Shown here in pieces: positions 2,720 through 61,921 of a stretch of DNA of 64,000 nucleotides (position 1 is the first letter of the stretch; every line of letters starts with the position of its first letter). The notes beneath the pieces are model-generated. The model was not told the origin of the DNA. It searched no databases and worked only from the letters and a program-made list of their open reading frames with translations. Position numbers and translations under genes: made by a program. This DNA is from Escherichia coli (lineage in GTDB: Bacteria; Pseudomonadota; Gammaproteobacteria; Enterobacterales; Enterobacteriaceae): NCBI RefSeq assembly GCF_046105845.1, contig NZ_CP151004.1. One strand, written 5' to 3'.

Positions 2720-2925
2720 AAAAAAAAGCACCGCAATTAGGCGGTGCTACATTAATCACTATGGACAGACAGGGTAAATGTACAGGAAGTGAAAAAAGGT
2801 AGCTTTGCTACCATGGTCTGAATCGCAGACCAATTGCAAACACAACAACACAACATCACAACCGTAAGCCAAAAGTTCACCAGAACACGCATTCCGATAA
2901 AACTTTTCGTTCCGGCTCAGGAAGT
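2720..2925 (-). ncRNA. gcvB: GcvB small regulatory RNA (Hfq-dependent, represses amino-acid/peptide transporter mRNAs)
   Basis: Minus-strand sequence reads ACTTCCTGAGCCGGAACGAAAAGTTTTATCGGAATGCGTGTTCTGGTGAAC...TGTTGTGTTGTTGTGTTTGCAATTGG... (G/U-rich R1 region) and ends in hairpin GCACCGCCTAATTGCGGTGC plus U8; divergent from gcvA. Confidence 0.85.
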
Positions 2926-21144: not shown

Positions 21145-21510
21145 GTCGACAGGGAGTCAGACAACGAAGTGAACATCAGGATGATGACACTTCTGAAGGA
21201 CACACCAGGATGGTGTTTCAGGGAAAGGCTTCTGGATGAAGCGAAGAGGATGACGCAGGACGCGTTAAAGGACACCTCCAGGATGGAGAATGAGAACCGG
21301 TCAGGATGATTCGGTGGGTCAGGAAGGCCAGGGACACTTCAGGATGAAGTATCACATCGGGGTGGTGTGAGCAGGAAGCAATAGTTCAGGATGAACGATT
21401 GGCCGCAAGGCCAGAGGAAAAGTTGTCAAGGATGAGCAGGGAGCAACAAAAGTAGCTGGAATGCTGCGAAACGAACCGGGAGCACTGTGAATACAGTGCT
21501 CCCTTTTTTT
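21145..21510 (+). ncRNA. csrB: CsrB, CsrA-sequestering small RNA
   Basis: Starts GTCGACAGGGAGTCAGACAACGAAGTGAACATCAGGATGATGACAC; many CAGGATG/AGGA motifs in predicted loops; ends with a terminator. Confidence 0.9.
21478..21510 (+). terminator. rho-independent terminator of csrB
   Basis: gggagcactgtgaatacagtgctccc hairpin followed by ttttttt. Confidence 0.8.
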
Positions 21511-21555
21511 ATTCCTGCTATCCTTCGCGGCAGTTTTTCTTATTGAGGTTGCTTT

Positions 21556-57690: not shown

Positions 57691-57730
57691 GTAGGCCTGA
57701 TAAGACGTGTGAGCGTCGCATCAGGCAAGG
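57691..57730. repeat. REP element between cysI and cysH
   Basis: gtaggcctgataagacgtgtgagcgtcgcatcaggcaagg. Confidence 0.55.
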
Positions 57731-57747
57731 CAAACAGTGAGGAATCT

Positions 57748-58482
57748 ATGTCCAAACTCGATCTAAACGCCCTGAACGAACTGCCGAAGGTAGATCGCAT
57801 TCTGGCGCTGGCGGAAACTAACGCCGAACTGGAAAAACTGGACGCTGAAAGCCGCGTTGCCTGGGCGCTGGATAATCTGCCCGGTGAATATGTACTTTCT
57901 TCCAGCTTTGGCATTCAGGCGGCGGTGAGCCTGCATCTGGTGAATCAGATTCACCCGGATATCCCGGTGATCCTGACCGATACGGGTTATCTGTTTCCGG
58001 AAACCTACCGCTTTATTGACGAGTTAACGGACAAACTCAAGCTCAACCTGAAAGTGTACCGTGCTACCGAAAGCGCCGCCTGGCAGGAAGCGCGCTACGG
58101 CAAACTGTGGGAGCAGGGTGTTGAAGGCATTGAAAAGTACAATGACATCAACAAAGTCGAACCAATGAACCGGGCGCTGAAAGAACTGAATGCGCAAACC
58201 TGGTTTGCTGGCCTGCGCCGTGAACAATCCGGCAGCCGCGCCAATTTACCGGTGCTGGCAATTCAGCGTGGCGTATTTAAAGTGCTGCCGATTATCGACT
58301 GGGATAACCGAACTATTTATCAGTACCTGCAAAAGCATGGCCTGAAATATCACCCATTATGGGACGAAGGATATTTATCGGTGGGCGATACCCATACAAC
58401 CCGTAAATGGGAACCCGGCATGGCGGAAGAAGAAACGCGTTTCTTTGGCTTAAAAAGGGAATGTGGGTTACACGAAGGGTAA
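57748..58482 (+). CDS. cysH: phosphoadenosine phosphosulfate (PAPS) reductase CysH
   Basis: ORF 57595 trimmed to [23 protein letters not shown] (244 aa); C-terminal ECGLH catalytic Cys motif. Confidence 0.9.
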
Positions 58483-58840
58483 ATATTGCCGGATAAATTA
58501 AACGCCTCTGTCAGAAATGATGGGGGCGTTTTTATTTTGCGAGCAGCATTCCTGATTTTAAACGTGAACGCCGCTGGAAGAATCAACAGGTATATAATGG
58601 TGTCGGGTGCTTGAGGCTGTCTGGCGTTAAGCATTCGCGAGGTTCCAGATGGACAAAAGCCCCAGGCGATATTTCTATCAACCTGAGGCCAGCGTTCGAA
58701 CCCAAACAATTCGAATGTTAGTCTCTTCTTTGCAGGGAGGCAAGACATGTGTATATCACTGTAATTCGATATTTATGAGCAGCATCGAAAAATAGTCCAC
58801 TGATATCATCGATAATACTAAAAAAACAGGGAGGCTATTA

Positions 58841-61507
58841 ATGGAACCTTTTAAATATATATGTCATTACTGGGGGAAATCCTCAAAAAGCCTGACGAAA
58901 GGAAATGATATTCATCTGTTGATTTATCATTGCCTGGATGTTGCAGCTGTTGCAGATTGCTGGTGGGATCAATCAGTCGTACTACAAAATGCTTTTTGCC
59001 GAAATGAAATGCTATCAAAACAGAAGGTGAAAGCCTGGCTGTTATTTTTCATTGCCCTTCATGATATCGGAAAGTTTGATATACGATTCCAATATAAATC
59101 AGCAGAAAGTTGGCTGAAATTAAATCCTGCAACGCCATCACTTAATGGTCCATCAACACAAATGTGCCGTAAATTTAATCATGGTGCAGCCGGTCTGTAT
59201 TGGTTTAACCAGGATTCACTTTCAGAGCAATCTCCCGGGGATTTTTTCAGTTTTTTTGATGCCGCTCCTCATCCTTATGAGTCCTGGTTTCCATGGGTAG
59301 AGGCCGTTACAGGACATCATGGTTTTATATTACATTCCCAGGATCAAGATAAGTCGCGTTGGGAAATGCCAGCTTCTCTGGCATCTTATGCTGCGCAAGA
59401 TAAACAGGCTCGTGAGGAGTGGATATCTGTACTCGAAGCATTATTTTTAACGCCAGCTGGGTTATCTATAAACGATATACCACCTGATTGTTCATCACTG
59501 TTAGCAGGTTTTTGCTCGCTTGCTGACTGGTTAGGTTCCTGGACCACAACGGATACCTTTCTATTCAAAGAAGATGCACCTTCAGGCATACAAGCGCTAA
59601 GAACATATTTTCAGTATAGACAACAGGATGCGTGTCGGGTACTGGAGTTGAGTGGCCTTGTATCAAATAAGCGTAGTTATGACGGCGTACATGCCTTACT
59701 GGACAATGGCTATCAACCAAGACAATTACAGGTGTTGGTTGATGCTCTTCCTACAGCTCCCGGGCTGACGGTGATTGAGGCACCTACGGGATCAGGTAAA
59801 ACCGAAACAGCGCTGGCCTATGCCTGGAAACTTATTGACCAACAACTTGCGGAGAGTGTTATTTTTGCCCTCCCTACACAAGCTACTGCAAATGCAATGC
59901 TCAGTAGAATGGAAGCGAACGCGAGCCGTTTATTTACCTCCCCAAATCTTATTCTTGCTCATGGTAATTCACGTTTTAACCACCTTTTTCAATCAATAAA
60001 ATCACGCGCATTTACTGAGCAGGGGCAAGAAGAAGCATGGGTTCAGTGTTGCCAATGGTTGTCACAAAGTAATAAGAAAGTGTTTCTAGGGCAAATAGGC
60101 GTTTGCACGATTGATCAGGTATTGATATCGGTATTGCCAGTTAAACATCGCTTTATCCGTGGTTTGGGAATTGGTCGAAGTATTTTAATTGTTGATGAAG
60201 TTCATGCTTACGACACGTATATGAACGGCTTGCTGGAGGCTGTGCTCAAGGCTCAGGCTGATGTGGGAGGGAGTGTTATTCTTCTTTCCGCAACTCTACC
60301 AATGAAACAAAAACAGAAACTTCTGGATACTTATGGTCTGCATACAGATCCAGAGGAAAATAACTCCGCATATCCACTCATTAACTGGCGAGGTGTGAAT
60401 GGTGCACAACGTTTTGATCTGTTAGCTCATCCAGAACAACTCCCGCCCCGCTTTTCGATTCGGCCAGAACCTATTTATTTAGCTGACATGTTACCTGACC
60501 TTAGGATGTTAGAGCGAATGATCGCAGCGGCAAATGCGGGTGCACAAGTCTGTCTTATCTGCAATTTGGTTGATGTTGCACAACTATGCCACCAACGGTT
60601 AAAGGAACTAAATAACACGCAAGTAGATATAGATTTGTTTCATGCGCGCTTTACGCTGAACGATCGTCGTGAAAAAGAGAATCGAGTTATTAGCAATTTC
60701 GGCAAAAATGGGAAGCGAAATGTTGGACGGATACTTGTCGCCACCCAGGTCGTGGAACAATCACTCGACGTTGATTTTGATTGGTTAATTACTCAGCATT
60801 GCCCCGCAGATTTACTTTTCCAACGATTGGGCCGTTTACATCGCCATCATCGCAAATATCGTCCCGCTGGTTTTGAGGTTCCTCTTGCCACCGTTTTGCT
60901 GCCTGATGGCGAAGGTTACGGACGACATGAGCATATTTATAGCAACGTTAGAGTCATGTGGCGGACGCAGCAACATATTGAGGAACTTAATGGAGCATCC
61001 TTATTTTTCCCCGATGCCTACCGGCAATGGCTGGATAGCATTTACGATGATGCTGAAATGGATGAGCCAGAATGGGTCATCAAAGGCATGGATAAGTTTG
61101 AAAGCGCTGAGTGTGAAAAGAGGTTCAAGGCTCGCAAGGTTCTGCAGTGGGCTGAAGAATATAGCTTGCAGGATAACGATGAAACAATTCTTGCGGTAAC
61201 GAGGGATGGGGAAATGAGCCTGCCATTATTGCCTTATTTACAAACGTCTTCAGGTAAACAACTGCTCGATGGCCAGGTCTACGAGGACCTAAGTCATGAA
61301 CAGCAGTATGAGGCGTTAGCACTTAATCGCGTCAATGTACCCTTCACCTGGAAACGTAATTTTTCTGAAGTAGTAGATGAAGATGGGTTACTTTGGCTGG
61401 AAGGGAAACAGAATCAGAATGGATGGATCTGGCAGGGTAATAATATTGTTATTACCTACACTCGGGATGAAGGGATGACCAGAGTCATCCCTGCAAATCC
61501 CAAATAA
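58841..61507 (+). CDS. cas3: CRISPR-associated nuclease/helicase Cas3 (type I-E)
   Basis: 888 aa; HD nuclease motif (FIALHDIGKFD), SF2 helicase Walker A (EAPTGSGKTETAL) and DEAH-type box (LIVDEVHAYD). Confidence 0.95.
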   Translation: MEPFKYICHYWGKSSKSLTKGNDIHLLIYHCLDVAAVADCWWDQSVVLQNAFCRNEMLSKQKVKAWLLFFIALHDIGKFDIRFQYKSAESWLKLNPATPSLNGPSTQMCRKFNHGAAGLYWFNQDSLSEQSPGDFFSFFDAAPHPYESWFPWVEAVTGHHGFILHSQDQDKSRWEMPASLASYAAQDKQAREEWISVLEALFLTPAGLSINDIPPDCSSLLAGFCSLADWLGSWTTTDTFLFKEDAPSGIQALRTYFQYRQQDACRVLELSGLVSNKRSYDGVHALLDNGYQPRQLQVLVDALPTAPGLTVIEAPTGSGKTETALAYAWKLIDQQLAESVIFALPTQATANAMLSRMEANASRLFTSPNLILAHGNSRFNHLFQSIKSRAFTEQGQEEAWVQCCQWLSQSNKKVFLGQIGVCTIDQVLISVLPVKHRFIRGLGIGRSILIVDEVHAYDTYMNGLLEAVLKAQADVGGSVILLSATLPMKQKQKLLDTYGLHTDPEENNSAYPLINWRGVNGAQRFDLLAHPEQLPPRFSIRPEPIYLADMLPDLRMLERMIAAANAGAQVCLICNLVDVAQLCHQRLKELNNTQVDIDLFHARFTLNDRREKENRVISNFGKNGKRNVGRILVATQVVEQSLDVDFDWLITQHCPADLLFQRLGRLHRHHRKYRPAGFEVPLATVLLPDGEGYGRHEHIYSNVRVMWRTQQHIEELNGASLFFPDAYRQWLDSIYDDAEMDEPEWVIKGMDKFESAECEKRFKARKVLQWAEEYSLQDNDETILAVTRDGEMSLPLLPYLQTSSGKQLLDGQVYEDLSHEQQYEALALNRVNVPFTWKRNFSEVVDEDGLLWLEGKQNQNGWIWQGNNIVITYTRDEGMTRVIPANPK

Positions 61508-61921
61508 CTTCGGGAATGATTGGTATCAATGACGATAACAAGACCAATAACGGTTTATCCCTACTTAAGTAGGGAAGGTGCACAATGTACATCTTCTTTT
61601 AATTTCCCGGTATGAGATTTTATATTCACAGTATGAATATTTTATGTAATAAAATTCATGGTGATTATTATAACTAAAAATTTCTTTGATAATAAAACGA
61701 ATAACTTGCAGATTTGAAATGCATGCATTATTGTCTTTAAACAATTCAACACATCTTAATATATGCATAGGTTAATTGTATTAAACCAATGGATATATTT
61801 TTGCAGTGAATGTGATTATTGAATTAATTACGCCGTATTTTTTCTTTGTTTTTACCGATAACGGAAGTGTGCCGACGTATAGAAATGCAGGAGAAATGTC
61901 GGAGCATATGAAGGAGAACAA
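61508..61921 (+). promoter_or_regulatory. cas3-cse1 intergenic region containing the Cascade operon promoter (Pcas)
   Basis: 414 bp, strongly AT-rich, non-coding, directly upstream of cse1; in E. coli K-12 this region is H-NS-silenced and LeuO-activated (established knowledge; exact promoter elements not mapped here). Confidence 0.6.

Follow-up and report, generated by a model that had tools for sequence, protein, structure and literature searches.

In the hok/sok systems, the single-stranded 5' tail of the Sok RNA starts target recognition. A hok gene of this kind, hokX, has been described in the cysH-iap region of Escherichia coli B and of an adherent-invasive E. coli strain (PMC7232551), and a 2025 survey found hok together with sokX next to cysH in 90% of uropathogenic strains, the rest carrying sokX only, like K-12 (PMC12736100). 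The K-12 gene, sokX (b4701), is annotated in antisense orientation to cysH and cas3. SokX RNA has been detected in K-12 under all conditions, without differential expression (bioRxiv 10.1101/2024.06.20.599902), and overexpression of SokX had no phenotype in one published screen that covered biofilm, motility and fimbriae.

The gene on the other side of this interval, cas3, has a promoter that has been dissected in K-12 by means of reporter fragments. A fragment spanning -172 to 0 relative to the cas3 ATG was as active as longer fragments (PMC7019758), and fragments with or without the hok promoter showed similar activity (PMC7019758 Fig. S1). The footprint of CRP at this promoter covers -66 to -38, and mutation of the core TATGAGCAGCATCGAA lowered promoter activity 3.5-fold (PMC7019758). 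H-NS was reported to repress cas3 in stationary phase, and Cas3 dosage is a known limiting factor for interference (PMC4782391).

Here, we analysed the cysH-cas3 spacer in a stretch of E. coli DNA of 64,000 nucleotides (contig NZ_CP151004.1), referred to below as the window. We consider it very probable that this spacer is a mosaic, composed of the cysJIH terminator, the 5' half of a hokX/sokX locus and 91 bp of cas-cassette DNA, and that the whole is best explained as a truncated hokX/sokX relic with an orphan SokX RNA, followed by an independent cas3 promoter. The content of the spacer is already known from the K-12 annotation and from published work (PMC12736100, PMC7232551, PMC7019758), and the significance of the analysis beyond correct annotation is small. 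What we add are the coordinates and strands of the elements in the window, the exact junction at the hok ATG, the ancestral state of the intact locus and a caveat about the strand of the Rfam model; further minor additions are a hypervariable island in the hok promoter and a TAGAAT-to-TATAAT change that is absent from all compared genomes.

Organization of the Spacer and Its Flanking Genes

Because cysH ends at 58482 and cas3 starts at 58841, the spacer (58483..58840) measures 358 bp (Table 1). The gene pair is flanked by cysI upstream and cse1 downstream, and the GC content falls from about 0.50 to 0.36-0.37 across 58700-59100, i.e., on entering the cas3 side. The original prediction, which had placed a 358-bp spacer between a sulfate-assimilation operon and an AT-rich cas3, was thus accurate in both respects. 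The spacer of K-12 MG1655 is also 358 bp long and is collinear with that of the window.

Table 1. Features in and around the cysH-cas3 spacer (window coordinates; IS positions are those of the compared locus records)
Feature	Position	Strand	Basis or remark
cysH (PAPS reductase), last gene of cysJIH	57748..58482	+	Pfam PAPS_reduct, E 8e-59; RefSeq annotation of homologous loci
132-aa ORF, ATG start, spurious	58350..58748	-	ORF list
Intrinsic terminator of cysJIH	58500..58541 (hairpin 58500-58531 plus T-run)	+	Terminator scan
hokX promoter region (putative)	58547..58604	+	Position relative to Rfam leader start and other hok loci; hexamer scan; allele comparison
hokX mRNA leader relic	58605..58749	+	RF01794 match; 58605 is the predicted TSS
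sokX antisense RNA, 59 nt	58707->58649	-	59/59 identical to K-12 b4701
sokX promoter	58743->58715	-	-35 TTGCCT (58743->58738), 17-bp spacer, -10 TAACAT (58720->58715); TSS 58707, taken from the K-12 annotation
hok Shine-Dalgarno GGGAGG	58735-58740	+	Part of leader relic
hok ATG	58747-58749	+	3' end of leader relic
Residual hok start and unrelated codons	58747..58764	+	ATG TGT ATA TCA CTG TAA, as in K-12
DNA specific to the K-12-type cas cassette, 91 bp, with cas3 promoter region	58750..58840	+
CRP core TATGA-N6-TCGAA	58774-58789		About -67 to -52 from the cas3 ATG; 16-mer identical to K-12
Equivalent of the published CRP footprint	58775-58803		PMC7019758
Candidate cas3 -10 GATAAT	58811-58816	+	Hexamer scan
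cas3 Shine-Dalgarno GGGAGG	58829-58834	+
cas3, K-12-type I-E variant	58841..61507	+	Pfam Cas3_HD, Cas3-like_C_2, DEAD
IS elements in compared locus records	L002 4693-5805; L004 3163-3860; L007 1208-; L008 1-432

The first element after cysH is the intrinsic terminator of the operon, which has a 14-bp stem and a 4-nt loop followed by TTATTTTGCG. Its minimum free energy is -20.0 kcal/mol (z -5.9; 0 of 200 shuffles equal), versus -10.8 kcal/mol for the opposite strand. Rfam matches to ctRNA_p42d, PyrG-leader, PyrR and Spot42 at 58438-58540 were far below their gathering scores and were rejected as look-alikes caused by this hairpin.

The 132-aa open reading frame on the minus strand had been predicted to be spurious, and we agree. 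It does present an uninterrupted frame of 132 codons with an ATG start, but that it is a real gene seems practically excluded: it has no Pfam match and is annotated in none of the RefSeq records compared, the stop-free length over the region varies from 41 to 170 codons, with interruptions or shifts of the frame in a number of alleles and genera, and it runs antisense through cysH, the terminator and the hok/sok RNA elements.

Several other features of the neighbourhood were observed in passing. Between cysI and cysH there is a REP-like palindrome (57694-57731) with naRNA4 matches on both strands, which at 24-28 bits fall short of the gathering score of 59.5. Farther away, the window contains full-length genes for the small RNAs CsrB (21154-21513, plus strand, 382.9 bits) and GcvB (2720-2925, minus strand, 199 bits), both expected for that part of the chromosome. 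The cas3-cse1 intergenic region (61508-61921) is extremely AT-rich (GC 0.23-0.30) and corresponds to the H-NS-silenced Pcas8e/anti-Pcas region of K-12 (PMC10011333).

The hokX Leader and the Strand of the Rfam Model

The only Rfam match above threshold in the spacer was to RF01794, named 'sok', which matched 58605..58761 on the plus strand over the full model (positions 1-157) with 103.7 bits and E 1e-23, the gathering score being 59. Read literally, a family named 'sok antitoxin' that matches the plus strand would denote a small RNA gene on that strand at 58605-58761. We ruled out this reading, to which we assign almost no probability, by running RF01794 on the hokC/sokC and hokE/sokE loci of K-12: at both annotated loci the match is on the strand of hok, with the hok ATG at its end, and the annotated sokC and sokE genes lie on the opposite strand within the match. 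RF01794 represents the hok mRNA leader and not the Sok RNA, which is a partial reverse complement of it, and this is why the 'sok' match in the window falls on the plus strand. For the same reason, annotation pipelines can put 'sok' on the wrong strand.

The structure of the leader is conserved beyond E. coli. We projected the Rfam structure onto 12 leaders, from E. coli, other Escherichia, Kluyvera, Pseudocitrobacter and Atlantibacter, and from K-12 hokE and hokC, and found that 80.9% of the cells were paired, compared with 30-48% when the 3' partners were slid. Compensatory changes occurred in 13 pairs, versus 3-6 in the slid controls, a number reached by none of 500 shuffles; in four of five measures, the observed values were matched by 0 of 500 shuffles. 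De novo folding of the same leaders by RNAalifold recovered the Rfam fold in part only. Those E. coli polymorphisms that affect the third hairpin are located in the loop or a bulge or are compatible with wobble pairing.

All leaders of the hokX and hokE types share an upstream ATG, located at 58715-58717 in the window. The frame that starts with it in E. coli hokX is 12 codons long and has a stop that overlaps the hok ATG; in hokE and in some other genera, this ATG is in frame with hok. A classical mok frame, long, overlapping hok and equipped with a start codon, was looked for in intact hokX and not found.

SokX and Its Promoter

The window encodes SokX on the minus strand, identical in all 59 positions to K-12 b4701, inside the hok leader. 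The RNA consists of a 5' tail, a 14-bp GC-rich hairpin and a CUUUUGU tail, and it folds with a minimum free energy of -23.8 kcal/mol (z -3.3); the same interval on the plus strand reaches only -15.3 kcal/mol, because three G.U pairs turn into C.A mismatches. The hexamers of the sokX promoter score 8 of 12 matches in the hexamer scan, both are conserved across genera in the leader alignment, and the -35 overlaps the hok Shine-Dalgarno sequence. Production of SokX from this intact promoter has been shown in K-12, and by analogy we infer it for the present strain.

The original prediction had pointed to a sokX-type hok/sok relic in the equivalent K-12 interval, and the relic is indeed there; what the prediction lacked was only the placement and strand of sokX. 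The Rfam scan, promoter and terminator prediction and K-12 alignment that it had proposed were all carried out: the Rfam scan returned RF01794 well above its gathering score, the promoter and terminator searches placed the cysJIH terminator, the sokX promoter, the hok -10 and a candidate cas3 -10, and the alignment showed the spacers to be collinear and located b4701. That the interval might hold neither a small RNA model nor a conserved structure is contradicted by the RF01794 match and by the K-12 sokX annotation.

With respect to function, SokX might still serve as an antitoxin in trans by silencing a paralogous hok mRNA such as that of hokE, its closest relative. SokX and SokE hardly differ in their hairpin parts, and the duplex of full-length SokX with the hokE leader reaches -77.9 kcal/mol. 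Pairing of the SokX 5' tail, however, amounts to -40.4 kcal/mol in cis versus -16.6 kcal/mol with the hokE leader and -12.7 kcal/mol with the hokC leader, and hokE has a SokE of its own. Also speaking against a role in trans are the absence of a phenotype on SokX overexpression in the sole screen found and the inactivity of the K-12 hok loci, as reported in the portion of PMC7232551 that cites Pedersen and Gerdes 1999. We therefore regard silencing in trans as quite improbable; most likely, SokX is an antitoxin RNA that has been orphaned and retains no essential role.

Truncation of hokX by Probable Replacement of the cas Cassette

No Hok/Gef toxin ORF of about 50 aa follows the leader in the window. 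Alignment to intact loci shows that homology ends between 58749 and 58750, directly after the hok ATG, and the same junction was present in all seven truncated alleles examined. Intact alleles encode a 50-aa Hok protein at this point (Pfam HOK_GEF, PF01848, E 5.7e-10). The hok 3' UTR is likewise absent from the window: fbi-type pairing of the leader 5' end with 58750-58940 was not above random, with 328 of 500 shuffles as good. The 5'-3' fold-back duplex of an intact allele reaches -22 kcal/mol but is itself marginal relative to shuffles (49/500). Since the toxin ORF is missing, the window locus is a relic and not a functional toxin-antitoxin member; having also lost the hok terminator and the 3' fold-back partner, it cannot act as a toxin-antitoxin system.

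A comparison of 58400-58900 with 5,426 complete E. coli genomes revealed how widespread the two forms are. The region was matched in 5,425 genomes, and 1,100 of these covered it in full; most of the remaining genomes matched 58400-58749 only, with a 'Hok/Gef family protein' annotated from there, and about 80% of the 5,425 carry a 50-aa Hok at this point. Four allele states were distinguished. Truncated hok occurred with K-12-type cas3 after it, and intact hok preceded either O157-type cas3 or, in alleles without cas genes, iap directly; the fourth state comprised forms disrupted by IS1 or IS421. Among the loci compared, IS421 lies just 3' of hokX, IS1 within the hokX leader and IS186 by hokE/hokC of K-12; these placements agree with the published inactivation of K-12 hok loci by insertion elements (PMC7232551).

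A simple internal deletion of the toxin gene was considered and rejected. At the nucleotide level, the 91 bp upstream of cas3 share no homology with what follows hok in O157-type or cas-less alleles, and the K-12-type and O157-type Cas3 proteins encoded at this same locus are only 30.5% identical in amino acid sequence; the lack of homology downstream of the junction, together with this divergence, argues for replacement of a cassette and not for internal deletion. In a scan of species-representative genomes, cysH proved to be followed immediately by an intact hokX in several Escherichia species, in three Kluyvera species and in Pseudocitrobacter and Atlantibacter, which indicates that the intact state is ancestral.

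We accordingly propose a history in which cysH was originally followed by an intact hokX/sokX locus, and in which a K-12-type cas cassette would have replaced the adjoining DNA, its left edge landing right after the hok ATG. Such a replacement would have taken away the toxin ORF, the 3' fold-back element and the hok terminator, and the relic would have kept the weak hok promoter, the structured leader, the hok Shine-Dalgarno sequence and ATG, and the sok promoter and gene. The sole perfect target left to SokX would then be a toxin-less leader transcript, and cas3 would be driven from its own CRP-activated promoter 3' of the junction. K-12 has sokX without hokX because the edge of the cassette falls after the hok start codon, and an edge at exactly this point provides a clean marker for the swap of cas cassettes in E. 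coli.

Two further observations concern the distribution of these alleles. The HokX protein WP_000956458.1 recurs in six intact loci (O157:H7, O111, a dog isolate, two cas-less strains and ECNB21-M121), and WP_000956460.1 is annotated in two other intact alleles (L016 and L017); the recurrence of the former suggests purifying selection on the intact toxin despite a variable promoter. A 3,294-bp contig of a 'Bacillota bacterium' metagenome-assembled genome (JAEWTL010000007.1) carries the K-12-type hokX junction (MCISL) and a K-12-type cas3 with 96% amino acid identity, and is almost certainly E. coli contamination or the result of mis-binning.

The hokX Promoter Region

Upstream of the leader, 58547..58604 would, by homology to other hok loci, act as the hok promoter. 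The hexamer scan found no good -35 there, and hok promoters in general are without one. The -10 at 58593-58598 reads TATAAT in the window and TAGAAT in every other allele examined, a difference due to a single position, 58595, which is T in the window and G in all the others. The exact 81-mer of the window at this site occurred in none of the 5,250 matching E. coli genomes, and the closest haplotype differs from it at 58595 alone. The T could be a harmless up-mutation that followed the loss of the toxin, or a sequencing error.

The same region forms a hypervariable island, with a mean pairwise diversity of 0.094 among seven truncated alleles versus about 0.017 in the flanks (cysH, leader and cas3 DNA). 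Truncated and intact alleles have in common at least two haplotypes of the island that diverge deeply, and this sharing points to recombination across the locus. Signs of decay are absent from the relic in the seven truncated alleles, which contain no indels and have both promoters intact. Lack of decay could mean selection; the polymorphisms common to truncated and intact alleles, on the other hand, indicate ongoing recombination, which could by itself keep the relic intact.

The cas3 Promoter and Possible Use of the Relic

The original prediction had also suggested that the spacer may hold the cas3 promoter, and this is borne out by the activity of the K-12 fragment -172..0 and by conservation of the CRP core. 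The window core TATGAGCAGCATCGAA is identical to that of K-12 and is at the same distance from the cas3 ATG; the predicted CRP site lies within the cassette-specific 91 bp. The 3' part of the footprint reads AAATAGTCCACTG in the window and AAATAGCCCGCTG in K-12, with substitutions at 58796 and 58799, both of which are polymorphic among K-12-type alleles. A search of the accessible literature found no mapped cas3 transcription start site. Judged from the sequence, it may lie near 58823, with the CRP centre at -41.5, i.e., in class II geometry. The cas3 promoter and its CRP site move with the cassette and not with the core genome.

The position of the relic immediately upstream raises the question of whether it has been co-opted, the hok promoter and leader serving as an alternative long cas3 5' UTR (TSS at about 58605, about 236 nt before the ATG) and SokX tuning mRNA stability or read-through. 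The terminator scan found no plus-strand terminator between 58605 and cas3, so that transcription through the hok leader could continue into cas3; to any transcript across 58649-58707, SokX would be perfectly complementary. Preservation of the relic in all truncated alleles examined and the TATAAT hexamer of the window also fit such a use. Nevertheless, co-option is unlikely, and what chiefly disfavours it is that inclusion of the hok promoter made little difference in the K-12 reporter data, in which -172..0 was sufficient (PMC7019758). Furthermore, CRP control maps 3' of the junction, hok promoters lack a good -35, and recombination with intact alleles can account for the conservation of the relic. 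We consider it a shade less likely still that leader and SokX have been retained as part of cas3 control, with the TATAAT hok promoter sending transcripts into cas3 that are paired by SokX. If that were true, the supply of Cas3 would be tied to a former toxin-antitoxin RNA switch, and co-option of either kind would link Cas3 dosage to an antisense RNA. The reading that we prefer remains that of a truncated relic beside a cas3 promoter independent of it.

Comparison with Known Systems

The hok/sok (parB) locus of plasmid R1 and the hokC/sokC and hokE/sokE loci of K-12 share with the window the leader fold described by RF01794, as well as a cis-encoded Sok of about 60 nt that has a 5' tail and a terminator hairpin and starts 40-49 nt before the hok ATG. 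Unlike these loci, the window has neither a toxin ORF nor a 3' fold-back partner, and the role of R1 hok/sok in post-segregational killing cannot apply to it.

The intact hokX/sokX loci of most E. coli (O157:H7 and B2 strains, for example) and of Kluyvera, Pseudocitrobacter and Atlantibacter lie, like that of the window, directly behind cysH and have the same promoter region, leader, sok and hok ATG. Those loci continue into the 50-aa Hok, a 3' hairpin and a U-run terminator, whereas the window continues after the ATG with five unrelated codons.

On the cas3 side, the promoter analysed in K-12 by Yang et al. 2020 (PMC7019758) has the identical CRP core, and the window differs from it at two bases of the footprint. 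The K-12 sokX (b4701) region as a whole matches the window in the 358-bp spacer, SokX, the junction, the cas3 type and the CRP core; the two spacers differ at about 2% of nucleotides, including 58595, the hok-promoter island, 58796 and 58799.
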